Part shown: positions 8,242-41,960 of the stretch, piece by piece
Numbering within the stretch: position 1 is the first letter of the stretch
Layout of the letters: every line of letters begins with the position of its first letter
Assembly (NCBI GenBank): GCA_002297045.1
Contig: DBJE01000003.1
Span: forward strand, 65,537 to 129,536
Source of the DNA: Bacillales bacterium UBA784
GTDB taxonomy: Bacteria > Bacillota_I > Bacilli_A > RFN20 > CAG-288
DNA: 64,000 bases
Reading direction: 5' to 3'
The notes under the pieces: model-generated
What the model saw: only the letters and a program-made list of their open reading frames with translations
The model's database searches: none
Told to the model about the DNA's origin: nothing
Translations under genes and position numbers: made by a program

Positions 8242-8316
8242 TGGTAGCGGGGGAAGGATTTGAACCTCCGGCCTTCAGGTTATGAGCCTGACGAGCTACC
8301 ACTGCTCTACCCCGCG
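8242..8316 (-). tRNA. initiator tRNA-fMet (anticodon CAU), CCA encoded
   Basis: 75-nt cloverleaf read on the minus strand: CGCGGGG-TA-GAGC-AGTGGTA-GCTC-G-TCAGG-CTCATAA-CCTGA-AGGCC-GGAGG-TTCAAAT-CCTTC-CCCCGCT-A-CCA. The C1xU72 mismatch and an acceptor/anticodon arm close to E. coli tRNA-fMet indicate the initiator. Confidence 0.9.
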
Positions 8317-11962: not shown

Positions 11963-13649
11963 AGTCTTCCAGGTTTCCTTTGAGTTTTAAGGCAATATTC
12001 TTTTTATCGACGCGTAGGCCGACGACATCGCCGACATTGAAGGTGTAGGGAGTGAAAACATAGAAGTCTTCTTCTTCCTCGCTACGGACAAGCAGTTCAT
12101 AGTGGTCGCCGACATAGACGGAAGAGATGACTTCCCCGCTTTCCTCGGCTTCCGACGTATCATCGGAAATAATGAAATTCTCCGGTGCGATGGAAGCCAC
12201 GACATCGGCATCGTTGAAGTCATACTTCTTTTTGTCCGGGCCGACCAGGTAGCCTTCCTCATCCCTTGTGGACTTGGCGACTAACTGGGTGAGGTCGCAG
12301 TCGAACGGATGTTCGTCGATATAGACCTTATTGTCCTTGCCGATATAGGCATCACGATAGACGTTGCTCGTATCACTCTTCTTCCTGAGATGGATTCCGT
12401 CCGGACGGATCTGGATGTAGATAGGCTTAGACCTGTCAAAGTCCTTGATGGACTGAGCAGTGACTTCATTGCGTCCGACCATGATGGTGTACTGGTAATG
12501 AATGCCTTTAAAGACCTTTTGGGTAATCTTTCCTTCCACATACCCCTCTTTCGGCTCTAAGGAATAGTGGATATCCTCAGGACGGACAACGACGTCTACA
12601 CGTTCATTGAGCTTGAACTGGTCTTCGCATTCCCAGTTTGCACCAAGGAAGTGCACTTTGTTTCCTTCCCTCCTCGTGCCAGAGTAGATGTTGGAAGATC
12701 CGATGAAGTCGGCAACGAAGGCGTTCTTCGGCTCGTTGTAGATATCTTCCGGCGTTCCAATCTGCTGAATGACTCCGTCATTCCTGACGATGATGGTATC
12801 GGACCTGGTCAGAGCCTCTTCCTGGTCATGGGTGACATAGATAAAGGTGATGCCAAGCTTCTTGTGCCTTTCCTTTAATTCAAGCTGCCTGTCCTTCCGC
12901 CTCTTTAAGTCAAGGGCGCCGAGAGGCTCATCAAGCAGAAGAATCTCAGGCTCGTTGATGATGGCGCGGGCGATGGCAACACGCTGCTGTTGCCCACCGG
13001 AGAGAGTGGAAATATCACGGTCTTCTAGCTCATCAAGGTCGACGATGCTTAAGGCATGGACGACGGCATCATCGATTTCCTTGTCTGTGAGATGACGGAA
13101 CTTCCTTGCGGGGCGGGGATTGGCGAGAACTTCCTCAAGCTGCGAAGAGAAGGCATCGATTCGCTTCTCTTTTTCCTCTTCCGCCCTGATTTTATCCTTT
13201 TTCCTTCGCTTTATCTGGCTCTTAAGATATTTAACCTGGGCCTTATCGACCTTTAGGACAGGATTTCCCTCCTTATCCTTTAATTCCCTAGGAATCTTCT
13301 TGTTGCGAAGACCGAAGGCGACGTTGTCGTAGACATCTAGGTTAGGGAAGAGAGCATAATGCTGGAAGACGGTGTTGATCGGACGCTTATAAGGCGGAAC
13401 CGGAGTAATATCCTTTCCGTTAAGAAGGATATCGCCGGAATCCGGATTCTCAAAACCGGCAATCCTGCGTAAAGTGGTGGACTTTCCGCATCCTGACGGT
13501 CCCAAAATGGTGACGAACTCACCTTTTCGGATGTTCAGATTCCTTTTGTCAATAACCGTAACGCCATCGTAGATTTTCGTCAGATTCTGAAGCTGAATGA
13601 TGTACTGGCTCTGTTTCGAGTCCAGTGACGTCTCATCGAAACGATTCAT
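11952..13649 (-). CDS. potA: spermidine/putrescine ABC transporter ATPase with large internal insertion
   Basis: Walker A GPSGCGKST, signature LSGGQQQRVAIARA, Walker B LLLDEPLGALD, C-terminal TOBE-like region. An insert of about 80 aa rich in K/E lies between the Q-loop and the signature. Start at the ATG at 13649 (MNRFDE) after AGGGGGG. Confidence 0.9.
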   Translation of the reverse strand: MNRFDETSLDSKQSQYIIQLQNLTKIYDGVTVIDKRNLNIRKGEFVTILGPSGCGKSTTLRRIAGFENPDSGDILLNGKDITPVPPYKRPINTVFQHYALFPNLDVYDNVAFGLRNKKIPRELKDKEGNPVLKVDKAQVKYLKSQIKRRKKDKIRAEEEKEKRIDAFSSQLEEVLANPRPARKFRHLTDKEIDDAVVHALSIVDLDELEDRDISTLSGGQQQRVAIARAIINEPEILLLDEPLGALDLKRRKDRQLELKERHKKLGITFIYVTHDQEEALTRSDTIIVRNDGVIQQIGTPEDIYNEPKNAFVADFIGSSNIYSGTRREGNKVHFLGANWECEDQFKLNERVDVVVRPEDIHYSLEPKEGYVEGKITQKVFKGIHYQYTIMVGRNEVTAQSIKDFDRSKPIYIQIRPDGIHLRKKSDTSNVYRDAYIGKDNKVYIDEHPFDCDLTQLVAKSTRDEEGYLVGPDKKKYDFNDADVVASIAPENFIISDDTSEAEESGEVISSVYVGDHYELLVRSEEEEDFYVFTPYTFNVGDVVGLRVDKKNIALKLKGNLEDYVL

Positions 13650-18072: not shown

Positions 18073-18355
18073 TTATTTTCTGAATAATTCCGAGTGCGTA
18101 TCAATTCGATAGAGCATTAAAACTAGTACGTTGTTTTGAATCTCATAAATTAGCAACCAGTCCGGTTCGATGCGGCACTCGCGCACTCCTCTATAGTTTC
18201 CCTTAAGATCGTGGTCACTATATCTAGAATTCAAGGTGCCACCATTTGCAAGGATATTAATGACTTCAAACAGCTTATCGAGATTCTTATTCTGCTTTTT
18301 TTGCGAGTTTCAAATCCTTTTTAAACTGACTAGTAAACAATACGTCATATTTCAC
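18073..18355 (-). pseudogene. yafQ: YafQ-family type II toxin (RelE/ParE superfamily), disrupted by a +1 frameshift in an A7 run
   Basis: GTG start overlaps the antitoxin stop (GTGA). Frame 1 reads VKYDVLFTSQFKKDLKLAKK then a stop. Shifting at the A7 run (18296..18302) gives KKQNKNLDKLFEVINILANGGTLNSRYSDHDLKGNYRGVRECRIEPDWLLIYEIQNNVLVLMLYRIDTHSELFRK. Total length is 283 nt (3n+1). Confidence 0.8.
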
Positions 18356-18624
18356 GAATTTAGGGCTGACTTTAGTTCGTCCATGGTGGAATATCGCTTA
18401 GCAGAAGGGTCGGCAACAAGTTTTTTTCCTTCTTCGATTGCCGCAATGGTCGCACTATTGGGATTTTCCACTCTTAAATCGAAGGGAATCCCATGTTCGC
18501 GTATTGACGCTCTTAAAAATATATTGATAGCCGCTGTCCTATTCAGTCCGAGTTCATTGAAAATTGCTTCTGCTTGTTTTTTAGTTTCCTTACCAATTCG
18601 AATATTTAAAGATGTTGTTGCCAT
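18352..18624 (-). CDS. relB: RelB/DinJ-family type II antitoxin
   Basis: MATTSLNIRIGKETKKQAEAIFNELGLNRTAAINIFLRASIREHGIPF, a ribbon-helix-helix DinJ signature. RBS AGGAGG. Confidence 0.85.
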   Translation of the reverse strand: MATTSLNIRIGKETKKQAEAIFNELGLNRTAAINIFLRASIREHGIPFDLRVENPNSATIAAIEEGKKLVADPSAKRYSTMDELKSALNS

Positions 18625-19337: not shown

Positions 19338-19622
19338 ATGAAGAAATACGAACTCATGTACATCCTTATGCCCACTCTTAGCGATGAGGAACTCGAGAAG
19401 GAAAACGAAAAACTTCAGAAGCTTCTCACGGACAATGGTGCCCAGATCACCGGCGTCAATAAGTGGGGAAGGAGAGACCTGGCCTATGAAATCAAGAAGC
19501 AGACCAAAGGCTACTATGTCGTCGTCGATTTCACCGCTGAAGGTAAGATCGTCGAACAGGCAAACAAAGTCAGGCTTCTTGACGAAAAGGTCATGCGTTT
19601 CCTTTTCACTCTTGCTCATTAA
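19338..19622 (+). CDS. rpsF: 30S ribosomal protein S6
   Basis: MKKYELMYIL...WG.RDLAYEI signature. Conserved rpsF-ssb-rpsR order. Confidence 0.95.
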   Translation: MKKYELMYILMPTLSDEELEKENEKLQKLLTDNGAQITGVNKWGRRDLAYEIKKQTKGYYVVVDFTAEGKIVEQANKVRLLDEKVMRFLFTLAH

Positions 19623-19647
19623 TAGCAATAGGTAAAGGAGATTAGCT

Positions 19648-20097
19648 ATGGCTGGAATGAATCGTGTCGTCTTAGTCGGAAGAATGGTCCGTGACCCGGA
19701 AAGGAAACGGACAAACAGCGGTGCGTCGGTGACTTCGTTCACCATCGCAGTGGATAACCCTGCGAAGACCGGGGGAGAGCGTTCGACAAGCTTCATCCCA
19801 TGCACCTGCTGGAGCAAGACTGCTGAAAATGTCGCCAAATACTGTTCCAAGGGTTCCTTGGTCGGTGTCGACGGCAGACTGAATCAGCGCAGCTACGAAG
19901 ACCGGAACAAGCAGAAACGTTCGGTCATCGAAGTGATTGCCGAGTCGGTTCAGTTCCTTGAGCGGAAAGGTGCCTCCGAAGGTGCCTCTCAGACGGACTT
20001 AGCCGGCGCTCCGAGTGCTTCTAATGAAGCTCCGGACACCAACAGCAATGCTGCCCATGAAGGAATCGATTCTTCGGACGACGATCTTCCGTTCTAG
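19648..20097 (+). CDS. ssb: single-stranded DNA-binding protein
   Basis: OB fold (MNRVVLVGRMVRDPE), acidic C-terminal tip DDDLPF. Confidence 0.95.
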   Translation: MAGMNRVVLVGRMVRDPERKRTNSGASVTSFTIAVDNPAKTGGERSTSFIPCTCWSKTAENVAKYCSKGSLVGVDGRLNQRSYEDRNKQKRSVIEVIAESVQFLERKGASEGASQTDLAGAPSASNEAPDTNSNAAHEGIDSSDDDLPF

Positions 20098-20130
20098 CTT
20101 CGGCTCAAATGAAAGGATGGAAAAACAAAT

Positions 20131-20358
20131 ATGTTCAAAAGAATGAAACCTCGCAAAAAGGTTTGCTACTTCACTAAGAACCATATCAAGTACATCGATT
20201 ACAAAGATGTCGATCTGTTAAAGAAGTACATCTCGCCTAGCGGCAAGATCACTCCTAAGCGGATCACCGGCACTTCGGCAAAGTACCAGCGCAGGCTGGC
20301 CGATGCCATCAAGCGTGCCCGTTTCATGGCTCTGTTACCGTTCGTTTCCGATAACTAA
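20131..20358 (+). CDS. rpsR: 30S ribosomal protein S18
   Basis: KKVCYFT...[46 protein letters not shown]. Confidence 0.95.
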
Positions 20359-28922: not shown

Positions 28923-31554
28923 TCTTCTTTTCTCCTTTTCCTTCCTTATTTTCTTTTTTCTTCTTCCTCTTTTTCCGCTCGGTTTCGACATTGTCTATTT
29001 TCTTCTTATAGTCTAGGGCATCGTTGATTTTGTGGAAACAGACATCCTTGTAATTGCAGAGACGGCAAATGAGATTGTCCGTAGTGAAGGAAGTGAGAGG
29101 ACTAGAGGTCGGCTGGATAGGGAATTCCCCTTTCTCAAGGTGATGGATGATTGATAGGGCAGAGTTTACCGAATCCTGCCTTACCTGCTTCCTACTTATC
29201 TTCCTGTTCGTTCTGTCTTTCCTTAAGGTCGGATCAGCCTCTTTCTCATCCTTAGCGAAAGTGGCGACAGGGGCAAACATCAGGCTCTGGTTAAAGCGGA
29301 TGTCCCCTTTCTTATTCTTGTACTGAATGGCATCAGTCCTTGTTCCTTCCGTGTCGAAGAACTTTGTCCTGGATTTAAGATAGTCCTCATCCTCAAGGAC
29401 TAGTCCCTCTAGCTTGACCTTTGTACTAAGATCTGCCTCTGTCCTTGTCTTTTCTTTTTTCTTCGAAAGGGCGAACCTGCCTTTCGGGGACTTATCGTAG
29501 ATATGCTCAATCGCAAATCCGCCGAAGGTCGCCTTAAGATTCGGCCTATAGGGAATAGAGTCCTGCTTTTTTGCTACGGCCTCTTCCTTCTTCTGCTCGA
29601 TGGCATAGGCATAAAGAGGAAGCTGGATAGACCGTCCGAAATAGGTTTCCTTCGGAATAAAGGATTCTGCCCCTGTCTTATAATCGACAATCGTATAGAA
29701 ATGACGTCCTTCCCTTTCACTGAAGATCCTCTTATCGATATAACCGGAAAAGGGATAGGTCTTGCCATGATCGCTTAAGGTAAATTCAATCTTCCTTTCG
29801 GCATCGTTGTCGTTGACCCTTAAGGAAATATTTTCTTTTACCCTCTTACGGACTTCGCCGGCTATCGGCTTAAGCCACTCTTTGATGTTCTCCCTCGTCC
29901 TCTCCCTCTGCTTATCGAATTTCTGTCCGCGTTTCTCCCTGTCTTCCCTAAGGGACTTCTTTCCCCGTTCAAAAGCCTCATCGAAGGAATAGTCCTTATG
30001 GTTGATGGTCTCAAATACACTGTGGATCCTCGTTCCGCGGAAACGGCTGAAGTAGTCCTGAATCTGATCGGGAATCCTAGCCTCCCTATAATACTTGAAC
30101 GGACAGAGAATATAGGATTCAAGATTGGTGACGGAGAACTTCTCTGGGAGTGGGAAGATATTCTCTTTTAGTCCCTTAAAGGAGTGATCATATCCGTTAA
30201 AGACGATACTTTCTCCCTCTTTTGTGTTAAGTCTGTACTTTCCAAAACGGAACTGACTATCTCTCTGCCTTGCAAGATAAGCCTTCCTGCTTTCACTGGT
30301 ATAGACCCCTTCCTTGTTGTAGTCTTCTGTTTCACAAAGCTGAGGTAAGAGGACATCCTTATGTGCCTTCATATACTTCTTCTCTTCTTCCTTCCTTTCG
30401 TTGAAGAACTGGGAAGAGAAAAGGTTATCGTTTAGATGCTGCTTGACCCGGGAAAGAAGAACGATGTTCCTATAGGAGAGATAGTTCTTTTTCTTCCGGC
30501 GGTCAAGATTGGTTGTCACATAGCTTGGATTGAAGGAAATCTTGACCAGTTCGTCATCGGTAAGGACATTGTTGTCCTTACTCTCAAGATAGAAACGTCC
30601 AAAGAGGAAGTCGGTCACATAGACAATCTGACCAGGCCGGAAAAGGAACTTATCGCTTGCCCTTACCCCTCTTTTTGAAGTAAAACCTTTCCTTTTATAG
30701 GAAGAGATGATCTCTAGTAGACAGGAGAAGGCAAAAGAGAATCCCTGCTTCTCTTCTACCTCTTTAAGGGAATATTTCTCAATCCTTTGATTCAGGCTCT
30801 TCCTGTTAGGTTTGACCCTTTCTTCCTCAGTGAAGGAAAAGTCTTTCGTTTTATAGATACTATCAAGTTTGTCCTTCACTCCCTCTTCGGCAAGGAAAGA
30901 GGAGCTTGTTTCTTTAATGACCGGTATCGAGAAAAGATTTCCGATTCCGGAAAGATAAAAGACGTCCTCATCCCCTTTCACATGGATAAGGATATCCGAT
31001 TTCCTTTTCCCTGTCTTATCTTCCAGGATTCTTTTCCGGATATCGGAAAAGACATACCTGAACTGATGGAACTTGTCAGAGAAGAGAATGGTCTTTGGAT
31101 GATTAAGAAGGGTATACCGGTTTTCAAGATGGAAGGACTCGATATCTAAATCCTTGAAAGGGATGTTAAGCCGCTTAAGAAAGCCATGGACGACAAGGTC
31201 TTCCTGCCTTTCAAAGAGATTGACCTGATAAGAGGATATCCTTGCCTTGCCAAACGGTTTCTCTCTTATCCTTCCTTGCTGCTGAAGTTCATCATGCCTT
31301 TTTTTCAGTTTTTCGTTTTTCCGGTAGTCAGAGTGGATAAGTAGATCAAGATAGTCGTTTGCTTTCTGGTAGCTGATGCCCTGTTTCCTAAGATAGGGGA
31401 CTGCATTAGAAGAGATTTCATCGGCTACATGATTAAACAAATCATCAATCGACCAGATTGTAATTTGCTTGTTCCTATCCTTGCCTAAGTGCTCAAAGAG
31501 AAAAGGAAGATAATCCTTATCAGCAATTACAAGCCTGCCTTTGTTATTATCCAT
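28915..31554 (-). CDS. addB: AddB/RexB subunit (inactive helicase-like plus PD-(D/E)xK nuclease with Cys cluster)
   Basis: Upstream partner of addA with overlapping ends. GYIDKRIF...YTIVDYKTG nuclease motif. Cys at LCPFKYY and CRLCNYKDVC (Fe-S-type cluster). Start chosen at the ATG at 31554, 7 nt after GGAGA (31560 possible). Confidence 0.8.
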   Translation of the reverse strand: MDNNKGRLVIADKDYLPFLFEHLGKDRNKQITIWSIDDLFNHVADEISSNAVPYLRKQGISYQKANDYLDLLIHSDYRKNEKLKKRHDELQQQGRIREKPFGKARISSYQVNLFERQEDLVVHGFLKRLNIPFKDLDIESFHLENRYTLLNHPKTILFSDKFHQFRYVFSDIRKRILEDKTGKRKSDILIHVKGDEDVFYLSGIGNLFSIPVIKETSSSFLAEEGVKDKLDSIYKTKDFSFTEEERVKPNRKSLNQRIEKYSLKEVEEKQGFSFAFSCLLEIISSYKRKGFTSKRGVRASDKFLFRPGQIVYVTDFLFGRFYLESKDNNVLTDDELVKISFNPSYVTTNLDRRKKKNYLSYRNIVLLSRVKQHLNDNLFSSQFFNERKEEEKKYMKAHKDVLLPQLCETEDYNKEGVYTSESRKAYLARQRDSQFRFGKYRLNTKEGESIVFNGYDHSFKGLKENIFPLPEKFSVTNLESYILCPFKYYREARIPDQIQDYFSRFRGTRIHSVFETINHKDYSFDEAFERGKKSLREDREKRGQKFDKQRERTRENIKEWLKPIAGEVRKRVKENISLRVNDNDAERKIEFTLSDHGKTYPFSGYIDKRIFSEREGRHFYTIVDYKTGAESFIPKETYFGRSIQLPLYAYAIEQKKEEAVAKKQDSIPYRPNLKATFGGFAIEHIYDKSPKGRFALSKKKEKTRTEADLSTKVKLEGLVLEDEDYLKSRTKFFDTEGTRTDAIQYKNKKGDIRFNQSLMFAPVATFAKDEKEADPTLRKDRTNRKISRKQVRQDSVNSALSIIHHLEKGEFPIQPTSSPLTSFTTDNLICRLCNYKDVCFHKINDALDYKKKIDNVETERKKRKKKKENKEGKGEKKNG

Positions 31555-31740
31555 ATTCATTCTCCTTTCAGAATTATAACATTTAGGAGAGGAACTTTTA
31601 GCTTGCCATAACCTGAACGGCAATACATGAATACCAAAACTTGACTGGGACTATCCTTTTTTGACTATTGCTTTCCTGGTTCCCTGTGAAATTACAGGAG
31701 TTTTTCGGTTATGGGTGTGTTGATATGAATTTTGCGACTT

Positions 31741-32658
31741 CTAAGCATTCTTCTTTGAATTCTGACTCAGTTGCATAATCGTCAGTGAAGTCTGATTAAA
31801 CATATCCTCAAGTTCCTTAAGGAGCGTATTTCGTCGGTTGGCGTTCGAAAGCAGTCTGCTCAAATTGTTCTTTATGTAATACTGGAATGCATCTCTTATC
31901 TTGAAGCCATACTTATTCCTGATGTCGATAACCTCATCACTCAACTTATGAAGCTCTGGATAAGCGTTTATCCTTGCCGGAACTAATGTGCTTATAGGCT
32001 GATCATGGTCCAACGAAATTTGTTTCACATGTTTCACAAGCCTTGGGAAAAACCCAGTGGAGGAATGTGTGCTGTCAAAAGTCTCCGTATATACTTGTTC
32101 TAAAATTTCGGACTCGGATGTGGGTGCCGTCAGGATAAAAACATCACCATTGTCCATAATGTAGAGCTTTTTAATTTCTGACAGAGTCCGATAAGTTTTC
32201 GGACTTGGGCCGATTAGAAACTTAATTCTGTTCACCAAATCATCCATTGCCTTTTTAAAATTTTTGTCACCCTTAAAGGCTTTGAAGATTATTCTCATTG
32301 GCAAACAATAATTATTATTGGAATAGAGTCGATCTTGCGTTCTTAAACGAGAAGAAAATATTCTTTTCAGCTGTTTCTGGTCGAACACGGCTTTTATGGC
32401 AGATCCGCTAATCCTAGCACCGCCCACGGGCGAAGGAGAGGATGTGGTATTTGAAGACAGATAACGCAGATATCGTGCATAGCAGTTATATGCGGGAATC
32501 CAATGTCTTATGCCGCTTGGGGTCGGTGTGGCTGATAAGGAAGAGTTCAAATATGACAGATATGATTTGGCTGTGCCTACACTTAACCCTTCGACCTTGG
32601 TTACATAGTCTTCAAAACTCCTGTAGGAACTTGTTTTGCTCACCTTAATGTTTGGCAT
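31741..32658 (-). CDS. hypothetical protein (305 aa), island gene
   Basis: Long ORF with RBS AAAGGAGG 8 nt upstream. No family recognised. Confidence 0.5.
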   Translation of the reverse strand: MPNIKVSKTSSYRSFEDYVTKVEGLSVGTAKSYLSYLNSSLSATPTPSGIRHWIPAYNCYARYLRYLSSNTTSSPSPVGGARISGSAIKAVFDQKQLKRIFSSRLRTQDRLYSNNNYCLPMRIIFKAFKGDKNFKKAMDDLVNRIKFLIGPSPKTYRTLSEIKKLYIMDNGDVFILTAPTSESEILEQVYTETFDSTHSSTGFFPRLVKHVKQISLDHDQPISTLVPARINAYPELHKLSDEVIDIRNKYGFKIRDAFQYYIKNNLSRLLSNANRRNTLLKELEDMFNQTSLTIMQLSQNSKKNA

Positions 32659-32752
32659 GGTTTATTTGCCTCCTTTTCAATTTGTTTTCAAAAAATATCA
32701 AGAGAATTTCCTTTAGATTTCAACTTTTATTCGTTTTGATGATAAAAGGAAA

Positions 32753-33112
32753 TTAGAAAATGATGTTTTCAATACGATAGAGAGTGTTTCCGAGTCCGAC
32801 GGTTAACACTGCTTGGCGTCCATCTTTAAGTTTGATTAAATATTTTGTACCATAAAAACTAGTTGTAACATTATCTTTATGCTCAATATCAATAACTCCC
32901 ATGGCTAAAACACTAGCTGAATCAACCATGTCGTGAGTAATCTTAATTTCTTCTTTACTAGGAAGGGTGAAAATCATAGCCGATTCACCTTCATCGCTTC
33001 CAAAATTAATTGTTGTACCAACCGGAAAATCGTGACTGCTTACATAACCTGCACTTGTCATAGCTTTAAGGGCACCAGCCCCTGCCTGTTTTAATTTGTC
33101 AAGAAAACCCAT
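32753..33112 (-). CDS. hypothetical small protein (119 aa), island gene
   Basis: ORF with perfect RBS AGGAGG (MGFLDKLKQAGAG...). AT-rich. No family recognised. Confidence 0.55.
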   Translation of the reverse strand: MGFLDKLKQAGAGALKAMTSAGYVSSHDFPVGTTINFGSDEGESAMIFTLPSKEEIKITHDMVDSASVLAMGVIDIEHKDNVTTSFYGTKYLIKLKDGRQAVLTVGLGNTLYRIENIIF

Positions 33113-33144
33113 AATTACTTACCTCCTATTGGTTTGACTTCTCT

Positions 33145-33172
33145 GTTTTACCCCCCCCCCGCAAAAAGTCAA
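33145..33172 (-). promoter_or_regulatory. candidate phase-variable promoter: TTGACT, 16-nt spacer containing G10, TAAAAC
   Basis: Minus strand: TTGACT-TTTTGC-GGGGGGGGGG-TAAAAC, about 30 nt upstream of the AGGAGG RBS of the 119-aa gene. Confidence 0.45.
33151..33160. repeat. homopolymeric C10/G10 tract
   Basis: Ten consecutive C on the plus strand, counted directly. Confidence 0.95.
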
Positions 33173-33425
33173 GAAATGTCTTGAAATTAAATTTGCAAGC
33201 CAAAAATATCGAACAAAATTCGTAGAAAATGTTCATTTATATCCGTGCAACTAAAATTTATGGAAGAATAAAAAAACGAAGAAAAATATCAGACTATAAG
33301 ACTATCTTCTTTTTTCTTGCTGATTCAAAGTATCAACATTCCCATGTTTAGCTCAGGAACTTCCGAAAACAGTCATAGTCTTTTTTAACTGTCGTACGGA
33401 GAAAGATGAGTATACTCTTCATTCT

Positions 33426-33455
33426 CCTTGATGCAGGATTGCATCTGCATCAAGG
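33426..33455. repeat. perfect 11-bp inverted repeat (CCTTGATGCAG-n8-CTGCATCAAGG)
   Basis: Read directly. Lies in a 650-bp non-coding gap and is not followed by a T run. Confidence 0.8.
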
Positions 33456-33764
33456 AAAGCATGAAGATACTTGATAATGAATTACTTTGCGGCCATGTAT
33501 GGTCAGAGCACAAATGTATGAGGATGCAGCATGCTACCACCTACTGCTTTCGCTTCTGTCTATTCAACAAGTCTATTAGGACCCTCGGTGAGTCAACCAT
33601 AGAACATCTAGAAGTGTCCTGCCTTCCCCTTTAGAAATGGATACAGGATGAGTTATTGAAATCTAGTTGAAAATATTTTTTAAAGCGTTCACTTCAAAGA
33701 TGGTTCACTGATTATAACATCCAAGTGGTGCATTAACACTTCAGTTTCTTCTTTAGAGATACAT

Positions 33765-36629
33765 TTAGTCTTTAAACTTCAGTAAGCCCCTTGTAAATCC
33801 GTTTGGATTGGTGAACTTCTTCTCTCCGGCGGCAAAACGGACAGTTATATATTTGCCTTTCTTGTCTATATTTATGATTTCGCCGTCCCCAAACTTAGGA
33901 TTGACGACCTTGGCACCGACGACAATCTTAGAGAAGTCTATGTTCATGGCTTTGGCATAGTCGTTGACCTGTTTTAGAATGGGCTTGATTGTCTCTTTGG
34001 CTTTGTTATCGGCGGGGCCTGTCTTGTCTGCTTCGGTTGAAATAAGTTCCTCCGAGTTCTTCCTGGTTTCCTGCTGGTTATAGAAGAGTTTCTCGTATTC
34101 TTCTCTTCTGATTACTGTATCCCAGCCACCGACATCCTCGCCCTTATGCCTTTCCAGACCAGTATAAGAAAGAGAGGAATCCTCGTATCTCTTGAATTTG
34201 AAGATGGCGTCGTTCATCAAGGAAGCATTGAAAACACCCAAAGAGCAGAGAAGCTCGAAGTCTTTGACATCCAGTCCGGTAACCTTCTTAAACAGGTCAG
34301 GCTCAAGCTGGGTGATGACATCCTTAAGGCATCTTTCCCGGTAGTCGGTGAGGTACCTGAAGACAGGGATTCTGGTCGCGAACTTGATCAGCTTCTCCTG
34401 GATTTCCTTTCTCTTGGACTTGTATTCCTTCTCTTCTTCGGTAAGTTCTTTCTTCTGCTTCGGAGTGAGCTTGTCATCCCCGTCCTTCTTTGTGTTCTTG
34501 ACGTGTTCAGATTTGTTGATGATGGTCTCAATATCAGAGTTCAAAGAACGGAACCCTTCAATGTTCATCAAGGCATCCAAAGCCTCTTTGTTGGTCAGAA
34601 GCTTGTTTAATGTGTCATTGTCCACATTGACCAAAAGAGCCGATTCCCATCTTCTGGCAAGCAAAGTCGCAGAAGTCCCGGCCATTGCGATATCAAGGAC
34701 ATCCTGGGCATTAATCTGCTTCCTGGTCGAGCCATCATAGGCGAGAACCGGAAGGAAGCTGATGAATTCCGCAACCTTCTTTTCAGGATTGTTTCCGTCC
34801 TGATTAAGACGGCAGGAATAGTCCGAAATCTCTCTCAGGGCCCGGTCTAATGCAAAATCAAAGACATAGCATTCCTGCTTAAGAATCGTCTCCGTTCCGT
34901 CCGGATTCTTGATCGTCCAGGGGGACTGGACACGGAATGCAGACTGGAAATAGGTTTCCGGTGATTTCAGGTTCCGGAGCCTAAAGATGCCTGTCCAAGG
35001 CCGGATAGTGACGCCAGTGGTCAGCTTTCCGCAGGAGAGAGTAATCGTCTTAGTCTCCAAAGGAGACTTTCCGTCCTTCTCCCTAGAATCGATGACTGGC
35101 TTTACGGCATCAAGACCAATCCCCGCTTTCGGTCCTGCACAGAGGTTGATGGTGTAGTCATGATAGAACGTGTTCTGCCGTTCCCTGAGAAGGTTATACC
35201 TTGCTTCGCAGGAAGCGACATTCGGCAGGAACCAAAGAGTGTGGGAGAGAACATTTAAAAGACGGACATCCGAGAAGGGCATCGGAGGACGCTTGTCCTG
35301 CCCAAGTTTAAGATCGTCGATGCTGGCAGACAGGTACTGGCCTCTAATCAGATCGAGCCACTTCTGGACTTCGTTTTTGTACTTGAAAGTAGCATTCGCC
35401 CCTCTTCCTTCCGCAGAGAAGAAGACATTGAGGTCGAACTCGTTGAATTCGCCATCCATGGCGACCTGTTTGATGCTGTCTGGAATCTGATAGGTCATCA
35501 AGACCATTCTCGGCAAGGAGAGATAGGGATTGTTCGATCCCTTCCAGTTCGCCTTCGCTCTCTGTTCATCGGAATATGTCCAGTTATAAATCTGATCTTC
35601 GATGAACTCCCCGCTGTTGATTGCTCTAAAAGGAGTTCCGGAAAGGAAGAGATAATAATTCGTAGTGATAGGAAGGAATGTTTCGTTGTAGGCATTGCCC
35701 GCCTCTTCATCCTGGTATTTCTCGACGTCAAAGTCGGCATCTGCCTCTTCGTCTGGATTCTCGAAGAGCTTTTTTGCATTCTCACGCCAGGCACCAAAGT
35801 GGTATTCGTCAAAGATGACCCTGTCCCAGTTCTCTGTATGGATGAATTCGTTTTTCGCCTTTATTCCGCCGTTCTCGTTGGTCCCGAGAAGGTTCTGGAA
35901 GGAGCCGAAGACGACAATCGGCTTTGACTTGTCACACTCCGCAAATTCCTTATCCAGACGGGTACTAGAGCCCTTGGCGTCGTTGTCCGAGACAAACTGC
36001 CATCCATCGAAATCGATGTGGGTAAGCAGGTCCTCTTTCCAGGCCGATTCGACTGCAGGTTTGAAAGTGAGGATAAGGATTCTCTTCAGACCCATTCTCT
36101 TGGCAAGCTCATAGGAGGCGAAAGTCTTCCCAAAGCGCATCTTGCAGTTCCAAAGGAACTTCGGCGCCTTATTAGGCTCTTCCTCTTTGGCCTTCTTGAA
36201 GTATTCTTCCGTGTATTGGACTGCTCTGACCTGTTCAGGTCTCCTCTTGAATGTCTCTGTTCTTCCGCGTGATGTGATGATACCGTCTCTGACTTCCAAT
36301 ATGGCTTTCTTCACATCGTCCAAGGAGCATTTGAACCATTCGTTCTTGTCTTCCCCGTTGTAGAGCTGTTTGATTCCTTCTCTCTTTAAAACGGCATGGA
36401 TATCATGGTCCATGAAGCAGGTTCCGTCGGAACGCATGGCGGAAGTGACAAAGATTGTCTTATGCTTCAGACCGCTAGTATGTAACTGCTCGTTGATTCT
36501 GTCTTCATAATCCTCACGATCTGTGTATCCGATTTTCAGATAGCCATCATGAGATGGGACATCTGGAAGAGTGTAGACATATATGGTCGGTTTGACCTCT
36601 GGTCTTTGCTTAAAAAAATCCGTTGCCAT
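33765..36629 (-). CDS. restriction-type enzyme: N-terminal GIY-YIG/T5orf172 nuclease, SF2 (type III Res-like) helicase, C-terminal UvrD/PcrA-type Tudor-like tail
   Basis: IYVYTLPD...GYLKIGYT...R..EQ (GIY-YIG-like), motif I MRFGKTF, motif II VIFDEYHFG, motif III LSGTPF, QSAFRVQ. C-terminal VGAKVVNPKFGDGEIINID...VRF. Three nt downstream of the MTase gene. Confidence 0.8.
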   Translation of the reverse strand: MATDFFKQRPEVKPTIYVYTLPDVPSHDGYLKIGYTDREDYEDRINEQLHTSGLKHKTIFVTSAMRSDGTCFMDHDIHAVLKREGIKQLYNGEDKNEWFKCSLDDVKKAILEVRDGIITSRGRTETFKRRPEQVRAVQYTEEYFKKAKEEEPNKAPKFLWNCKMRFGKTFASYELAKRMGLKRILILTFKPAVESAWKEDLLTHIDFDGWQFVSDNDAKGSSTRLDKEFAECDKSKPIVVFGSFQNLLGTNENGGIKAKNEFIHTENWDRVIFDEYHFGAWRENAKKLFENPDEEADADFDVEKYQDEEAGNAYNETFLPITTNYYLFLSGTPFRAINSGEFIEDQIYNWTYSDEQRAKANWKGSNNPYLSLPRMVLMTYQIPDSIKQVAMDGEFNEFDLNVFFSAEGRGANATFKYKNEVQKWLDLIRGQYLSASIDDLKLGQDKRPPMPFSDVRLLNVLSHTLWFLPNVASCEARYNLLRERQNTFYHDYTINLCAGPKAGIGLDAVKPVIDSREKDGKSPLETKTITLSCGKLTTGVTIRPWTGIFRLRNLKSPETYFQSAFRVQSPWTIKNPDGTETILKQECYVFDFALDRALREISDYSCRLNQDGNNPEKKVAEFISFLPVLAYDGSTRKQINAQDVLDIAMAGTSATLLARRWESALLVNVDNDTLNKLLTNKEALDALMNIEGFRSLNSDIETIINKSEHVKNTKKDGDDKLTPKQKKELTEEEKEYKSKRKEIQEKLIKFATRIPVFRYLTDYRERCLKDVITQLEPDLFKKVTGLDVKDFELLCSLGVFNASLMNDAIFKFKRYEDSSLSYTGLERHKGEDVGGWDTVIRREEYEKLFYNQQETRKNSEELISTEADKTGPADNKAKETIKPILKQVNDYAKAMNIDFSKIVVGAKVVNPKFGDGEIINIDKKGKYITVRFAAGEKKFTNPNGFTRGLLKFKD

Positions 36630-36632
36630 CGA

Positions 36633-38177
36633 TTAGTTCTCCGAATGGGGCCAAACGGTTGATTCTATGTAATTAATCTCGTCATCTGTCAAGCCGAAAA
36701 AACTATACAACAGAGAATCATTCCATTCTTGGCTAAATGGAACTTTTGGAATAAAATCATAGCATCCTCGGACAGTGTCTTGAGAGACCTTTTTCAGAGA
36801 TAAGAGAAAATGGAAAAACTTTGTTTCAATATAACTTTTTACGTTTTTGGCTTCTTTTAAACTTTTAAATGGCCCACAAATTAAATATGTTCCGGAGCAG
36901 CAAGTATTAGGCTCAGCAATGATTGGTTTTACTTTATCTGTTTTGACATCTGCACTACCAACTGAGCGTGGCAAAAGAATTTTATATTTATCGATGTATT
37001 CAGCTCCTCTAGTAATTTCTGAACGTTTGATCCATCCTCTGTTTTTCATTACATATGCAAAGATGTCTGTACTAGAAGTTTTGTTTTCAGATAAAGAATT
37101 GAAAGTGGATTTGGTAGTGAAAGGCCATAGAGAACCAACAAGCTCAGAAAATGGGCTTAATCCTTTTGTACGGACCTGGTGTAATATGTCAATTGCTTCA
37201 TTATCTCTTATAATTGTGGTGCACCCAGATTCTAATAAATATCTTGATTCCTTTGATAATATTTTATTGCCAGAGTGGTTATAAAAAGTACATTTTCCTT
37301 TGTAGTTTTTATCCCATAAGAAGTAGCAAACGCCACCTTTAATTTCTACACCTGAAAAACAATCTTCAGCTTTCGGAAAATCATGAATTTCTTTTATATT
37401 ATTGGACGATGTCATATATTCTCTGAAAGTCTTTATGCATGGGAAGCCACCAGCATACCATCTAGCAGGAATAATCATGGCAACATAATTTGGTTGCAGT
37501 TTAAACGCTGCTTCAACGAATTTGTCATATAAAGGGGTTGCCTGGGCTTGCCCTCCTCCTGTACTTAATTGATATGGCGGATTACTTATTATGACGTCAA
37601 ACTTCATCTTAAATACCTCCTCCACGTTCATTCCGTGAATGAACTCATAAGCATGCGTTTCTAAATCGGATTCTCTGTCATATTCGTTTTTTGATGCGCC
37701 ACAATAAATACAAGAAGCGTGGCTTTTTCCTGATGAATCATAAACCTCTTTTTCCCAGGTGTGATTTGTTCTTTTAAACCGGATATTTCCATCCGTATTT
37801 TCGAAATGGGTAATGGAGAATTCGCTGCTTGCATTTTTGGAGCAGTAGACACTACGTCTGGAAAGAAGACTCGTGAGTTCCGTTATGGCAATTCCGAAAA
37901 GCTGCTTATGGAAGATATGGTCCACTCTCTCCTGAAGATCAGGAAACTGGTTCTCAAGTCCCTTTAAAAGTCTCTTGGCAATCTCCCGCAGGAAGACCCC
38001 TGTCTTGCAGGCTGGGTCAAGGAATGTGGTATCCGGATTCTCGAATAGTTCTTGTGGAAGCATATCGAGCATCTGATTGACGACATCCGGTGAGGTGAAG
38101 ACTTCATCGCTTGAAAGGTTGGCTAGACAGCTTAGCACATCCGGGTTATAGACCTTGTTGAATAAATCATCACTCAT
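36633..38177 (-). CDS. Eco57I-type (gamma-class) N6-adenine DNA methyltransferase
   Basis: NPDVLSCLANLSSDEVFTSPDVVNQMLDML (motif X), FLDPACKTGVFL (motif I), VIISNPPYQ (motif IV). AT-rich, and every Arg codon I spot-checked was AGA or CGN. Confidence 0.9.
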   Translation of the reverse strand: MSDDLFNKVYNPDVLSCLANLSSDEVFTSPDVVNQMLDMLPQELFENPDTTFLDPACKTGVFLREIAKRLLKGLENQFPDLQERVDHIFHKQLFGIAITELTSLLSRRSVYCSKNASSEFSITHFENTDGNIRFKRTNHTWEKEVYDSSGKSHASCIYCGASKNEYDRESDLETHAYEFIHGMNVEEVFKMKFDVIISNPPYQLSTGGGQAQATPLYDKFVEAAFKLQPNYVAMIIPARWYAGGFPCIKTFREYMTSSNNIKEIHDFPKAEDCFSGVEIKGGVCYFLWDKNYKGKCTFYNHSGNKILSKESRYLLESGCTTIIRDNEAIDILHQVRTKGLSPFSELVGSLWPFTTKSTFNSLSENKTSSTDIFAYVMKNRGWIKRSEITRGAEYIDKYKILLPRSVGSADVKTDKVKPIIAEPNTCCSGTYLICGPFKSLKEAKNVKSYIETKFFHFLLSLKKVSQDTVRGCYDFIPKVPFSQEWNDSLLYSFFGLTDDEINYIESTVWPHSEN

Positions 38178-38865
38178 AATCTTTTAACCTCTTGTAGTTC
38201 ATTACACACCGGTGGACAAACTTTCCTTCTCCGTTGTTGTTATTGTCGAAGAGGGATTCTTGCCCATTTAGGTCCCTCTCAGGATTTTCGTTCTGCTTAA
38301 GAATCTCATCGAACGTGTATTCGCTTCTGGATAGCTGAGGTCCGGTCACGAATCCCCATTCGCTGAAGACAATCGGTTTGTCTATGTCATTTCCTTTTTC
38401 GTCGACTTCATGCAACGTCAGAGCATTCCCGCAGACGATGTTTTTAGAAAGAATGAAACGGATGGAGTCCCGCCTATCCTCGCCGCATTCCTTTTTGCAG
38501 ACTGATTTGTATTGTTTGTCCCAGATTTTGAAAAGACGTTCCCGGCATGCAATCACGTTGTCCATCCTGATGTCTACGCCATATAGGCTGGATACGGCAA
38601 GAAGGGAATTCTTCTCGAAATCCATTACGCTTCGGCGGTATTTCTTCTTCACGACTGCCAGTTTTCTATCGAGAATCTCGGCAAGGAAGTTCCCGTCACC
38701 ACACGCAGGCTCCAAAAATCTTGAATCAATTCTCTGGGTTTCGTCGTTGACGAGGTCACACATCGCCTTGACTTCACGCTCATTGGTGAAGACCTCACCA
38801 TGGTCTACGACACGCTTTCTGGACTTGATCTGCCTGTTCGTTTTCTTTTTCGTTTCCTTAGGCAT
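38170..38865 (-). CDS. truncated methyltransferase-like protein (SAM-binding half only, no NPPY)
   Basis: GEVFTNEREVKAM (motif X) and FLEPACGDGNFL (motif I) and YGVDI are present, but the protein ends without a (D/N)PPY catalytic motif. Translationally coupled on both sides. Confidence 0.6.
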   Translation of the reverse strand: MPKETKKKTNRQIKSRKRVVDHGEVFTNEREVKAMCDLVNDETQRIDSRFLEPACGDGNFLAEILDRKLAVVKKKYRRSVMDFEKNSLLAVSSLYGVDIRMDNVIACRERLFKIWDKQYKSVCKKECGEDRRDSIRFILSKNIVCGNALTLHEVDEKGNDIDKPIVFSEWGFVTGPQLSRSEYTFDEILKQNENPERDLNGQESLFDNNNNGEGKFVHRCVMNYKRLKDYE

Positions 38866-39056
38866 CACTCGTCCACCTCGATCTTGTGTTTCTTGAAATA
38901 AGGAGCGAGCTTTCTCTTTGCTTTGATGGTCGGCTTATGGGAGCCTCTTTCCCAGCGGTTGACGGTCTGAAAGGAAACACCCAAAAGATCGGCTAGTTCC
39001 GTCTGCGACAATATCAAAGTGGTTCTCAGCTTCTTGACAGCTTCTGCATAGGTCAT
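38865..39056 (-). CDS. XRE-family helix-turn-helix protein (candidate controller of the R-M operon)
   Basis: LSQTELADLLGVSFQTVNRWERG HTH. Start at the ATG at 39056, 8 nt after AGGAG. Stop overlaps the next start (TGATG). Confidence 0.8.
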   Translation of the reverse strand: MTYAEAVKKLRTTLILSQTELADLLGVSFQTVNRWERGSHKPTIKAKRKLAPYFKKHKIEVDE

Positions 39057-39081
39057 AGGTCCGCTCCTGTTCTGTTTCAAA

Positions 39082-39110
39082 AGTATACCATTTTCATCCC
39101 ATTCTGTCGA
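39082..39110 (-). promoter_or_regulatory. promoter of the HTH/MTase/Res operon
   Basis: Minus strand: TCGACA, 17-nt spacer ending in TGG, then TATACT (extended -10). Confidence 0.5.
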
Positions 39111-39141
39111 TGAACCATAGAGAGGAATCTAGACTTCTCTA

Positions 39142-41019
39142 TTAGTTCTTGACCAACTGTTTAAGATATTCGCGCAGATTATCATCCTCCGCATAAATGA
39201 ATGTTCCTTTTACGCCGCGTGTAAGAAGGACTTTATAGGTGTTTCGGATCAGTCTCTCGGCTAAGGCATCATCGGCTGTTCTGATTCCGCTTGCGGAATC
39301 GCTATGGGCGTTCCTTTCCTTATGGAATTCGATTTTTCCTGTTCTCTTGTTGTAAGTAAGATCCTTTCCGATGATGACCCCCGCATATTCGACTTCCAGC
39401 CCTTGGATAGTATGAATACAGAATACGTTCCTCTTCTGCGTGTCATCCAAAATGGCCGCTCTATCCGCCTTCTTGATGTTCCAGCGTAGTTTTGTTCCGT
39501 CCTCGTATTCGAAATCGTATTTCTCGGAATCGTATTGGCTGACCCATTCATGGGTGTAGCCGGCCATCAGTCTCATCTGATGGTTGGAATTCCAAAGCTT
39601 ATTCCATTTCTCCATCCTGTCTTTCCTGGAACCCATGATTTCCACTTTGTATTTCATGCCTTTGAGGGATACGAAATCATTCGTATAACCTAGGAAATGA
39701 TTGACGAAGGCGATGTACTGCTCTCCGCCCACGCATCTGAACTGGGAGGAGAGAATCATTCTGCTATCTTCGATGACCTTCGAACCGTATTTTTCGGCAT
39801 ATTCCTTTATCTGCTTGATTGACAAATCATCGGAAGCGGTGACAACCTGATCCTCATCGATCAGAAACACGTTGACTCTTGACGCATTGAAGAGCTTGTC
39901 GATGACATCAACGCTTTTCTGCACGCCCCATCCGAACTTCCATTTCAGCCTTCGGTGGGCTTCATCGACGATAATGCAGTCAAAATCATAGGCCGCCGAC
40001 TTTGCAAAGGCGGCAGGAGTCTTGAAGAGTTCCTTGATTGCCTTCTTCGTGAAATCCTTGGTCAGGATATCGCTGAAATAAGTACGCGGAGTGAAGTTTG
40101 CGGTCACATAGCAGGCGTTGCGTCTTGGCCGTCCATCTTTTGGGTGGATGAGCTGGCCAAGCGCGTTGATGGCGACGATGGACTTGCCTGACCCCGGCCC
40201 TCCTTTTACGATGATGGTTCTTCTCTCTCCTTTTTCCAAAGCCTCCTGAACCTCGCTGACGATTTTGGAAACGGAATAGGACTGCTCGGCATCATAGGAG
40301 AAGAAGGGCTCGCCGTTGATGGCGTCTGCGACCATCTTGGAGAAGCCTTCGCTCGGTCTGATCTGGGAACTGTCGATTTCATAGAGCGTGTTGCGACTGT
40401 AGGGTTTCTTTATATATCTGGCGATGAATTCGCTGAGCTTCTTCTGATCGTCCTTTAAGAAAGCAGGTGCCTCACGCACTAAAGGATAGTCCTTTTCATT
40501 TTTCAGAAGGACTTCATATCCTTCCGGCATATTGTGGAGATACGAGCAGGCGTTCACTCCGACGTTGTTAGTATAGATATACTCGTTGAAATCCTTCCTG
40601 ATGTTGGCATAGTTCAGTGCCTGGTAGGAAGGATGCCAGTAATCGTCCACGCCATGTCCTCCATCGGTGACGACATAGTCTTTCAAGAAGGATCTTCTCA
40701 CCGAGCTCCATTGCTTGAGCTCGATAAGGATGACATTCTCTTTGTCTTTTTCGTCTCTTCCGAAAATGAGGAAGTCGACTCTCTGCTTTGTGTCGACAAG
40801 CTTATATTCGACACCGACGCCGGCTTCCTTTGGAATGGAACCATCCTCCAATGCTTCTGCCACTTTTGGAAGGGAGTGGATCCAGGAATTGTATTCGCTT
40901 ATTGATCCTCCACCGATATGGTGTGCCTTGAATCCATCCAAAAGCAACTTGCCGATGACAGGATTTGGTCCTTCACAGTTGCTTATGAAATTCCCTACAC
41001 TATCGCTATATAAAATCAT
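39142..41019 (-). CDS. DUF2075-family (Schlafen group-3-like) ATPase/helicase with N-terminal PD-(D/E)xK-like nuclease region
   Basis: N-terminal VDFLIFG...VILIELKQW nuclease-like core, Walker A KGGPGSGKS, Walker B CIIVDEAH, QFRC, C-terminal TIQGLEVEYAGVIIG and LLTRGVKG. RBS GGAGGGGG. Confidence 0.8.
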   Translation of the reverse strand: MILYSDSVGNFISNCEGPNPVIGKLLLDGFKAHHIGGGSISEYNSWIHSLPKVAEALEDGSIPKEAGVGVEYKLVDTKQRVDFLIFGRDEKDKENVILIELKQWSSVRRSFLKDYVVTDGGHGVDDYWHPSYQALNYANIRKDFNEYIYTNNVGVNACSYLHNMPEGYEVLLKNEKDYPLVREAPAFLKDDQKKLSEFIARYIKKPYSRNTLYEIDSSQIRPSEGFSKMVADAINGEPFFSYDAEQSYSVSKIVSEVQEALEKGERRTIIVKGGPGSGKSIVAINALGQLIHPKDGRPRRNACYVTANFTPRTYFSDILTKDFTKKAIKELFKTPAAFAKSAAYDFDCIIVDEAHRRLKWKFGWGVQKSVDVIDKLFNASRVNVFLIDEDQVVTASDDLSIKQIKEYAEKYGSKVIEDSRMILSSQFRCVGGEQYIAFVNHFLGYTNDFVSLKGMKYKVEIMGSRKDRMEKWNKLWNSNHQMRLMAGYTHEWVSQYDSEKYDFEYEDGTKLRWNIKKADRAAILDDTQKRNVFCIHTIQGLEVEYAGVIIGKDLTYNKRTGKIEFHKERNAHSDSASGIRTADDALAERLIRNTYKVLLTRGVKGTFIYAEDDNLREYLKQLVKN

Positions 41020-41103
41020 CAGGCCCCCTCCTATATCCTGAATAATAGTTTATAGCAGAGATATATCAGTTCGGTAATCTCTGTAGATAAAACGAAATAA
41101 GAG

Positions 41104-41536
41104 GATAAACAATAGTGTTCCTAATGGTCGTACCTCGTCTTCTGCGTTTTCCCGGAAAGGAAGATCTTTCCGTAGAACAGGAACATGTATTCGCTAAAGG
41201 ACAGTCCGCGTCCGTTCTCTTTAAGGAACGTCTTCTCCGACAGTTAGAGCTGCATACTCTTGTGGTGAATCTGGAGATGAACCGCAAAAACGCAGCATTA
41301 TTTGGGTGCACCGCCGGTTGACCGGACTGAGCAGCCTATGGGCCTATTTATCCTTCGAGAGACATTGCCACCTGCAGCAGCTGCCTGGAAAGTCTCCGGC
41401 TTTTCTTGCCTTTCCGGAGGTTCCGCGACCGGCCACAGGGGAAAGGACTATATCAACCTGCAACCGACCTCGGAACTTCAGCAATGTAGTACGGAAATTA
41501 AACCGTCTCCCATGGCCGGGAACACTATTGTTTATC
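41104..41536. other. 433-bp GC-rich non-coding element closed by perfect 18-bp inverted repeats (structured RNA, MITE or invertible segment)
   Basis: GATAAACAATAGTGTTCC (41104..41121) is the exact reverse complement of 41519..41536. The interior looks markedly GC-richer than the AT-rich flanks, with many internal stems and no credible ORF. Confidence 0.6.
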
Positions 41537-41617
41537 TTTTTTATTATTTTTTTGCTTTTTCAATCAAATCATCCACGCTTCCTATAGTGTCAACTAGCTT
41601 ACGCAATAATCAGCTTT

Positions 41618-41676
41618 TGATTGAACTATAAACGAACTTCTGATTGAACTAATCATTGAACTAATGATTGAACTAA
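41618..41676 (+). repeat. iteron-like repeats: T(G/C)ATTGAACTA four times, three in 12-bp tandem phase
   Basis: Copies start at 41618, 41641, 41653 and 41665, in the AT-rich region at the right edge of the island. Confidence 0.75.
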
Positions 41677-41918
41677 TTAGATACTATGCGAAGACAAATC
41701 AGCCTATAGTATGAACTTTAAGAGCTGTCAATAGTAAAACCATCGATGGTCTTAAAAAAGCTGTTTTTGATGCAGCCAAGAGTGGTAGTGACATTGTCAG
41801 TAGCTATAATAGCAAAAGAGTTGCTTTTAGCCTATTATTTCAGTTTTGCCGATTTACGATAGCTTCTATCAGAAATTAACAATTTATTAATTTTTACTAA
41901 ACTTAGGTCTACAGGATA

Positions 41919-41953
41919 TAAAAAAGGAACAGAGGAAAAACATCTTCTGTTCC
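41919..41953 (-). terminator. rho-independent terminator after the ABC exporter operon
   Basis: Minus strand: GGAACAGA-loop-TCTGTTCC followed by TTTTTTAT. Confidence 0.7.
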
Positions 41954-41960
41954 ATTCTGT

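Follow-up and report, generated by a model that had tools for sequence, protein, structure and literature searches.

A defence island with ATG-style methionine codons in an AGG-to-Met bacterium and its partial conversion to AGG

A foreign block of genes with donor-like codon usage drifts to the usage of its host over its residence time, as stated in the concept of amelioration (Lawrence & Ochman). There is a group of Bacilli in which the codon AGG is reassigned to Met. Published internal Met usage in these recoded genomes is about 209–235 AGG and 58–69 ATG per 10,000 codons, the nearest standard-code species of the genus has 6.5 AGG per 10,000 codons, and UBA4682, a relative of the host described below, is counted among the recoded genomes (PMC8629427). 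Besides the code and its tRNA, this report, the Codetta paper, treats two phages for which AGG was inferred to mean Met; it contains no discussion of horizontal transfer. Whether a changed codon meaning isolates a cell is the question also addressed by engineered firewalls in recoded E. coli, made to block horizontal gene transfer and phages (PMC6207430; PMC13596443), and a 2026 firewall preprint mentions the AGG-to-Met Bacilli solely as a route by which reassignment might come about naturally (PMC13596443). A full-text literature search returned no report of horizontal gene transfer into these Bacilli. Here we describe a gene block in a 64-kb stretch of contig DBJE01000003.1 of Bacillales bacterium UBA784 (the window, in whose positions coordinates are given). 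It consists of a controller-like helix-turn-helix (HTH) gene, a cassette of i232, a DNA methyltransferase (MTase) and a putative restriction subunit (Res), a DUF2075 helicase gene, and two uncharacterised genes, i305 and i119 (Table 1). The block is very probably a horizontally acquired defence island in an AGG-to-Met host, standard in style on arrival, whose Met codons are being rewritten from ATG to AGG.

The host is a member of the AGG-to-Met Bacilli of the GTDB genus UBA7642, for which the reassignment has already been published (PMC8629427). As in the published recoded Bacilli (PMC8629427), AGG is the main Met codon in native genes of the window, ATG is rare, and CGN is preferred for Arg. 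Codons were counted over a non-overlapping set of long open reading frames (ORFs) in the window. Individual native genes hold about 30–50 AGG and 0–10 internal ATG per 1000 codons, the pooled values (34.7 AGG vs 5.2 ATG) show the AGG dominance that characterises recoded Bacilli, and AGG makes up 87% of native Met codons. When ohyA is aligned with S. aureus OhyA, its 18 AGG codons fall on Arg in no case, on Met in 6 and on Val, Leu, Ile or Phe in 8, while 16 of its 21 CGN codons are aligned with Arg. Between native orthologs of related genomes, AGG stands opposite AGG in 226 cases and opposite ATG in 31; codons for Leu, Ile and Phe mostly come next, and the twelve commonest partners include none for Arg. 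AGG and ATG together amount to about 40 per 1000 native codons, well over the usual Met content. Because of this high content and of the ohyA AGG codons on other hydrophobic residues, Met appears to have spread onto other hydrophobic positions in the host lineage. The sole tRNA gene in the window is that of tRNA-Met(CAT) (8242–8316), and the CCU tRNA gene lies outside it.

The island reverses this usage, with 14.9 ATG and 10.0 AGG per 1000 codons (Fisher p=3.5e-17 against the native genes). The ATG fraction of native Met codons depends on position, being 0.62 in codons 2–15, 0.25 in codons 16–30 and about 0.11 beyond codon 30. This 5′ retention of ATG may be due to mis-called starts, start-codon uncertainty being a confounder of any 5′-end ATG excess, or to avoidance of Shine-Dalgarno-like AGG strings near starts. 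The contrast becomes sharper once the first 30 codons of all genes are dropped, with 39 ATG and 25 AGG in the island vs 68 and 511 in native genes (odds ratio 11.7, p=1e-17). Past codon 30, ATG exceeds AGG in no native gene, whereas in all island genes it exceeds or equals AGG, and the island genes that have 3 or more such codons are each significant alone (p 0.009 to 3e-7). Internal ATG, which numbers up to 12 in an island gene (Table 1), is absent from native ohyA and occurs twice in addA. Arg usage also differs, AGA being at 23.5 per 1000 codons in the island vs 9.2 in native genes; the MTase gene has 11 AGA, 7 CGN and no AGG. An initial annotation of the window had noticed that the island writes Met as ATG at ordinary density while flanking genes hardly do so, and that the Arg codons sampled in the MTase gene are AGA or CGN. 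The per-gene frequencies, computed as it had proposed, agree on both points and confirm the reversal.

A search with AddB found three related species, UBA4682, HGM10888 and UMGS1247, in all of which (loci L001–L003) the ABC-transporter gene ABC1 abuts addB, with only about 5–6 nt between the ABC1 stop and the addB ribosome-binding site (RBS; 31552–31568 in the window). Alignments of L002 and L003 run to 31568 and resume at 41958, so that the breakpoints lie at 31568/31569 and 41957/41958. Since three related species have the empty site, the block is a true insertion. The feature first noticed at 31741–41019 is real, but the inserted block is wider. A terminator-like hairpin after ABC1 and an extended −10-like sequence, TGTTATAAT, before the addB RBS are both within the insert. 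Four metagenome contigs of the same species (L088–L091) carry the island at the same site with 96–99% nucleotide identity, and one of them, L089, covers 31534–41933, which is nearly exactly the block. The island entered the spacer of a few bases between the ABC-transporter gene and addB. At the addB locus syntenic to that of the window, UMGS1247 (L003) uses codons in the recoded manner, and it probably corresponds to a published recoded species.

More than 570 genomes, among them those of Clostridia, Bacteroidota, Fibrobacter and Treponema, contain the cassette. Of 80 loci examined from this set, about 60 keep the order i232–MTase–Res. Gene by gene, distant homologous cassettes have about 21–24 ATG and 4–9 AGG per 1000 codons, and 61 of them hold a median of 6 AGG each (range 2–18). 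The initial annotation took the island to be foreign, from donors with ATG as Met, and this holds, given the empty site in three relatives and the ATG style of cassettes across phyla. It also suggested a search for the same island elsewhere; what many phyla share is the cassette.

The closest copy outside the species is in UMGS237 (L005), where a DUF2075–HTH–i232–MTase–Res block has genes for a MobL relaxase and a TraG/VirD4-type coupling protein on one flank and further defence genes on the other. The UMGS237 element (L005 676–4073 and 12886–22459) also encodes an SMC-like ATPase, a KAP NTPase, an AAA_14/DUF4143 protein and a GmrSD nuclease. Judging from these neighbours, the copy is cargo of a conjugative or mobilisable element, and the vector of the island might have been conjugative. 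As L005 is on a mobile element, its codon usage describes the element and not the code of UMGS237; its use as proof of a standard code in UMGS237 was dropped, the whole locus being a mobile element. An L005-type relative has a single real AGG codon in about 2400. On arrival, the island wrote Met as ATG and was essentially free of AGG, in the style of the standard code.

For the AGG codons now present, the island genes were aligned codon by codon to their homologs, a conserved-Met column of Res being one with at least 90% Met in distant homologs. On 14 such columns Res carries ATG 7 times, AGG 6 times and GGA once, whereas its 24 conserved-Arg columns carry AGA or CGN 23 times, AAG once and AGG never (hypergeometric p=1.3e-9 for AGG on Met columns). 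Over the three cassette genes AGG is found on none of 40 conserved-Arg columns. A total of 15 codons are AGG in the island and ATG in L005, which is about 90% identical. In Res these are codons 129, 270, 477, 516, 550, 636, 758 and 856. All of them except 270, which is on a Leu/Ile/Met column, are ATG in L004–L007, and in distant homologs they are Met in 75/76 (129), 76/76 (477), 31/31 (516), 76/76 (550), 76/76 (636), 76/76 (758) and 56/67 (856). In DUF2075, the copies of UMGS237 and UMGS1247 have ATG at codons 141, 357, 465, 468 and 569; the first four are ATG in 4/4 non-conspecific homologs and the last in two. Codons 101 and 132 of i232 are ATG in L005. None of the 5 AGG codons of i305 is on a conserved Arg column, and its codon 206 is on a Met/Leu column. 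From these alignments we infer that AGG in the island is read as Met. The AGG sites pointed out earlier in Res (477, 550, 758) and DUF2075 (357, 465, 468) exist as described, and their placement on Met-like positions in Res is borne out.

Only one AGG codon, codon 227 of i232, is inherited. Of 62 distant homologs, 57 have Arg or Lys at this column. The codon lies within AAGAGGTTAAAAGATTATG, which comprises the RBS and the MTase start and does not differ between the window, L089, L005 and L092. This codon is retained because it also forms the RBS of the overlapping MTase gene. The import thus carried one real AGG codon in about 2400, doubling as a ribosome-binding site. A further apparent AGG codon in the HTH gene was rejected, since it is the Shine-Dalgarno sequence of the gene starting at 39056, inside a longer TTG-started ORF.

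Distances at 4-fold degenerate sites of Res are much alike among the window/L089 lineage, L005, L092 and L004 (0.48–0.55), and AGG at Met columns is confined to the first of these. At polarised sites, where three outgroups agree, ATG has become AGG in 6 of 17 cases vs T-to-G changes at 1 of 31 4-fold sites (p=0.005). Because of this excess, the ATG-to-AGG change is driven and not neutral, in line with the 87% share of AGG among native Met codons. In the host, AGG would be taken as Met. A directional pressure, the same one that made AGG the dominant Met codon of native genes, has turned about 38% (15/39) of the ancestral ATG codons of Res, DUF2075 and i232 into AGG. Arg usage has hardly changed: of 71 shared Arg columns, AGA is on 42 and then on 38. 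The conspecific L089 has the very same conversions, which are hence older than the split of the two strains.

The MTase gene stands apart in two respects. L089 is 96–98% identical to the window across the island except in the specificity half of this gene, where nucleotide homology to L089 is lost and none to L005 is found either. The two MTases are 100% identical over codons 1–120, after which identity drops to 20–46%, and L089 has an L005-type allele of 517 amino acids. The window allele also occurs in L092, at a uniform 81% nucleotide identity; since GC is equally low there, the low GC belongs to the allele itself. Both alleles also lack ATG-to-AGG conversions, with 0/7 in the window allele against L092 and 0/14 in the L089 allele against L005, the latter vs 15/39 in the neighbouring genes (p=0.005). 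The exchange of the specificity half between strains occurred by recombination, which probably resets conversion. Replacement of the whole gene as the reason for low GC and missing AGG was rejected, since L092 has the same allele, low GC is intrinsic, and only the specificity half is demonstrably swapped. The island had been called a mosaic; the swapped specificity half and the zero conversions fit this, but low GC and divergence do not, the former being intrinsic to the allele and the latter close to that of the neighbours.

The readings that compete with import and subsequent conversion differ in what they make of these codons. The initial annotation proposed that the island is a mosaic in which some AGG codons, those of DUF2075 in particular, mean Arg and are mistranslated as Met in the host. 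Under the standard table the DUF2075 sites are plausible as Arg (DEAHR-R-L and GS-R-KD-R-MEKW), and the inherited codon 227 of i232 is on an Arg/Lys column. Yet the DUF2075 codons are ATG in all four non-conspecific homologs (569 in two), no conserved-Arg column of the cassette carries AGG in the comparison with homolog columns that it had itself suggested, and the L005-type relative has practically no AGG to contribute. The Arg reading of DUF2075 is contradicted, the lone inherited AGG sits in the RBS of the next gene, and mistranslation of this kind is very improbable. It is about as improbable that high ATG reflects gene-specific codon choice in native genes, through high expression or 5′-end effects, and not foreign origin. 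The native rpsF-ssb-rpsR operon (19338–20358) does have 7 ATG and 4 AGG, and ATG prevails at native 5′ ends. This excess, which came up when core genes were scanned for equally high ATG, the finding that would have told against the initial annotation by its own criterion, is however inside the first 13 codons, the effect is limited to about the first 30 codons of native genes, and the empty site and cross-phylum homologs show foreign origin independently. Presence and absence by themselves give no direction, so that the block could be thought ancestral to the lineage and precisely deleted in three relatives. This is hardly credible, as three different species share the same tight stop–spacer–RBS junction, Met and Arg usage is donor-like, and 76 outgroup cassettes show ATG to be the ancestral codon at the AGG sites.

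Less unlikely, if still not the favoured account, is that the MTase gene lacks AGG since selection keeps its ATG codons, for instance to avoid ambiguous or slow decoding in a self-protecting enzyme, and not by recent replacement. Two different alleles both show zero conversions, and their synonymous divergence from standard-style copies is like that of the neighbours, which did convert. Against this, recombinational replacement of the specificity half is seen directly between strains, nothing independent ties AGG to decoding error here, and the Met-codon counts are small. A recombinational reset and selection for ATG are both possible. Import followed by conversion has itself several points to answer. 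For ten island AGG codons, the column is variable or of Lys/Arg type and the residue cannot be inferred from it, namely Res 482, 827 and 947 (Lys/Arg/variable columns), i232 12 and 198 and DUF2075 530 (variable columns), and i305 13, 82, 229 and 247. Met decoding of island AGG rests on sequence, and partial reading as Arg by wobble of tRNA-Arg(UCU), a possibility raised for these genomes (PMC8629427), may occur. The polarised rate test rests on small numbers. Synonymous divergence of the MTase from L005 is 0.42, only slightly lower than the 0.42–0.56 of its neighbours, so that the reset is no more than probable. Neither an integrase, a relaxase nor a clear target-site duplication was found in the window.

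Table 1. Features of the inserted block, in order along the window (ATG, internal ATG codons)
Feature	Positions	Strand	Remarks
Whole inserted block, ~10.4 kb	31569–41957	.	Between ABC-transporter (ABC1) stop and addB RBS
TGTTATAAT, extended −10-like	31573–31581	-	Island edge just upstream of addB RBS; consensus match only
i305, uncharacterised	31741–32658	-	addB-proximal edge; 5 ATG, 5 AGG
i119, small, uncharacterised	32753–33112	-	4 ATG, 0 AGG
Res, putative restriction subunit, 954 aa	33765–36629	-	T5orf172/GIY-YIG-like N-terminus and SF2 ResIII helicase (Pfam); 12 ATG, 11 AGG
MTase (MT514), Eco57I-type N6-adenine DNA methyltransferase, 514 aa	36633–38177	-	PF07669 E=4.7e-32; 7 ATG, 0 AGG
Specificity (target-recognition) half of MTase	36638–37446	-	Allele differing between conspecific strains; GC 0.30–0.38
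i232, small MTase-like protein	38170–38868	-	MmeI_Mtase N-terminal region (Pfam, PADLOC); 5 ATG (4 if ATG-started), 5 AGG; conserved cassette partner
MTase RBS and start, AAGAGG...ATG	38175–38193	-	Overlaps i232 end; holds the island's only inherited AGG (38188–38190)
HTH controller-like, 63 aa	38865–39056	-	HTH_3 and PADLOC control-protein matches; 0 AGG
DUF2075/Schlafen group-3-like helicase	39142–41019	-	PF09848 E=7e-66; 8 ATG, 6 AGG
GC-rich element, 463 bp	41089–41551	.	Bounded by 33-nt imperfect inverted repeats with 15-nt perfect core
Four direct repeats GAACTAATSATT, 12-nt spacing	41611–41677	.	Upstream of DUF2075, in AT-rich stretch between inverted-repeat element and island edge
Terminator-like hairpin and T-run	41923–41956	-	Just after ABC1 stop, at island edge; absent from relatives

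Res and the MTase look like a split restriction-modification enzyme, since both match a single PADLOC Type IIG model, PDLC03626, Res in its N-terminal part (positions 20–800) and the MTase in its C-terminal part (positions 864–1322). The MTase also matches the PF07669 profile over its full length (1–171 of 171). An HTH gene resembling those of control proteins is adjacent to them. Unlike fused Type IIG enzymes, the island has separate Res and MTase polypeptides plus the small MTase-like i232, and the nuclease/helicase and methyltransferase are separate ORFs in the window and in about 65 homologous loci. The HTH gene is called from ATG by gene callers in L089 and L092, and is preceded by a Shine-Dalgarno sequence, AGGAG (39064–39068), and a promoter-like site (39110–39082). 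The DUF2075 gene is a candidate stand-alone defence gene, with weak PADLOC matches to PDC-S41, AbiO and Nhi. No solved structure matched Res, the MTase or DUF2075 in sequence searches.

The two genes nearest addB are less well placed in known families. For i305 there is no match in Pfam, PADLOC or NCBIfam; its approximately 96 homologs are remote and share invariant R104, Q108, R110 and H218 and the motifs RLxTQDR, LSLDHDxP and NSSKNK. Fusions to integrase-type SAM-like domains or BspA leucine-rich repeats occur in some of these homologs. Its AlphaFold2 model is confident (pLDDT 88) and has no significant PDB or viral structural match. Assignment of i305 as a tyrosine recombinase or HNH nuclease was dropped, the motifs being unlike those of recombinases and the model without a structural match. 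The i119 gene has no match in the same three databases, and copies are found only in the conspecific contigs L088–L091. Between Res and i119 is a gap of 650 bp (33113–33764) with no notable ORF, which is conserved in conspecific contigs. No island protein matches a recombinase family in Pfam, PADLOC or NCBIfam, and inspection of the island junctions by eye gave only a terminal inverted match of 6 bp.

The GC-rich element beside DUF2075 may be an element like a miniature inverted-repeat transposable element or a structured RNA. Folding gives z=−5.2 and −4.4 on its two strands, and Rfam has nothing credible for 40.9–42.0 kb or for the L004 tail. The element is partly homologous to L004, where a longer version of about 1.4 kb without a long ORF lies at 11892–13331. 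A scan of the genome contigs for the 15-nt core of its inverted repeats gave scattered single chance matches among the matches listed.

Other stretches of foreign appearance are found in the window and in relatives of the host. In the recoded UBA4682, a copy of Res is at another locus (L004), with 19 internal ATG and 1 AGG. Downstream of it (L004 3589–10582) are genes for proteins of 836 amino acids, 623 amino acids (a repeat protein) and 310 amino acids, with high ATG and almost no AGG; this appears to be a second defence locus of foreign origin in a genome that is recoded. UMGS1247 has a DUF2075 copy with 17 ATG and no AGG on a 9-kb contig, where a neighbouring gene has 2 ATG and 8 AGG; its distance from the UMGS237 copy at 4-fold sites is 0.18. 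The UBA4682 Res and the UMGS1247 DUF2075 look like separate, more recent arrivals, but caution is due as both genomes are metagenome bins. Beside the ribosomal-protein operon of the window, at 18073–18624 on the minus strand, the translations suggest by eye a toxin–antitoxin pair, RelE-like (53 amino acids, perhaps truncated) and RelB/DinJ-like (90 amino acids), with 2 ATG and 1 AGG jointly and a GC content at third codon positions of 0.45 and 0.32. This pair may be another small foreign insert.

As in amelioration, the island keeps donor-like usage and is moving toward that of the host. Unlike in ordinary amelioration, the drifting codon is a reassigned one, so that the change is synonymous only in the host code and is Met-to-Arg under the standard code, and ATG-to-AGG change is much faster than Arg-codon change. 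The paper on the reassignment (PMC8629427) describes no chromosomal island that is mostly in ATG style with measurable conversion, as seen here. The idea that the locus is a natural test of sense-codon reassignment as a barrier to horizontal transfer is a valid one, and for this island the barrier is weak on import. Import is evidently possible, since a 10-kb defence block has become established in an AGG-to-Met lineage; the code change is a weak barrier to it. Engineered firewalls were built to block both directions (PMC13596443), whereas here one rare codon is reassigned and import is hardly impeded. The nearly AGG-free state of the established island could be due to donor bias or to filtering.

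Accumulating AGG may hinder re-export of the island. In a standard-code recipient, Res would have Arg in place of Met at 6 or more of its 14 best-conserved Met positions, which suggests that reassignment would restrict export rather than import. We tentatively picture the reassigned code as a one-way valve and not a firewall, a proposal that may or may not hold, in which AGG-poor imports enter nearly unimpaired, the ATG-to-AGG drive then makes them progressively unreadable to standard-code hosts, and the converted fraction acts as a residence clock. If so, the exempt MTase (two alleles, 0/21) would mark either ongoing recombination with a standard-code mobile pool or selection for unambiguous decoding. 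The converted fraction of Met codons would be a measurable marker of residence time. The recoding of the host was known from published work; what is refined here is a defence island part-way converted to the Met codon of its host, with a recombining and unconverted methyltransferase. The isolation of lineages by natural reassignments is largely untested, and this island is a concrete natural case.

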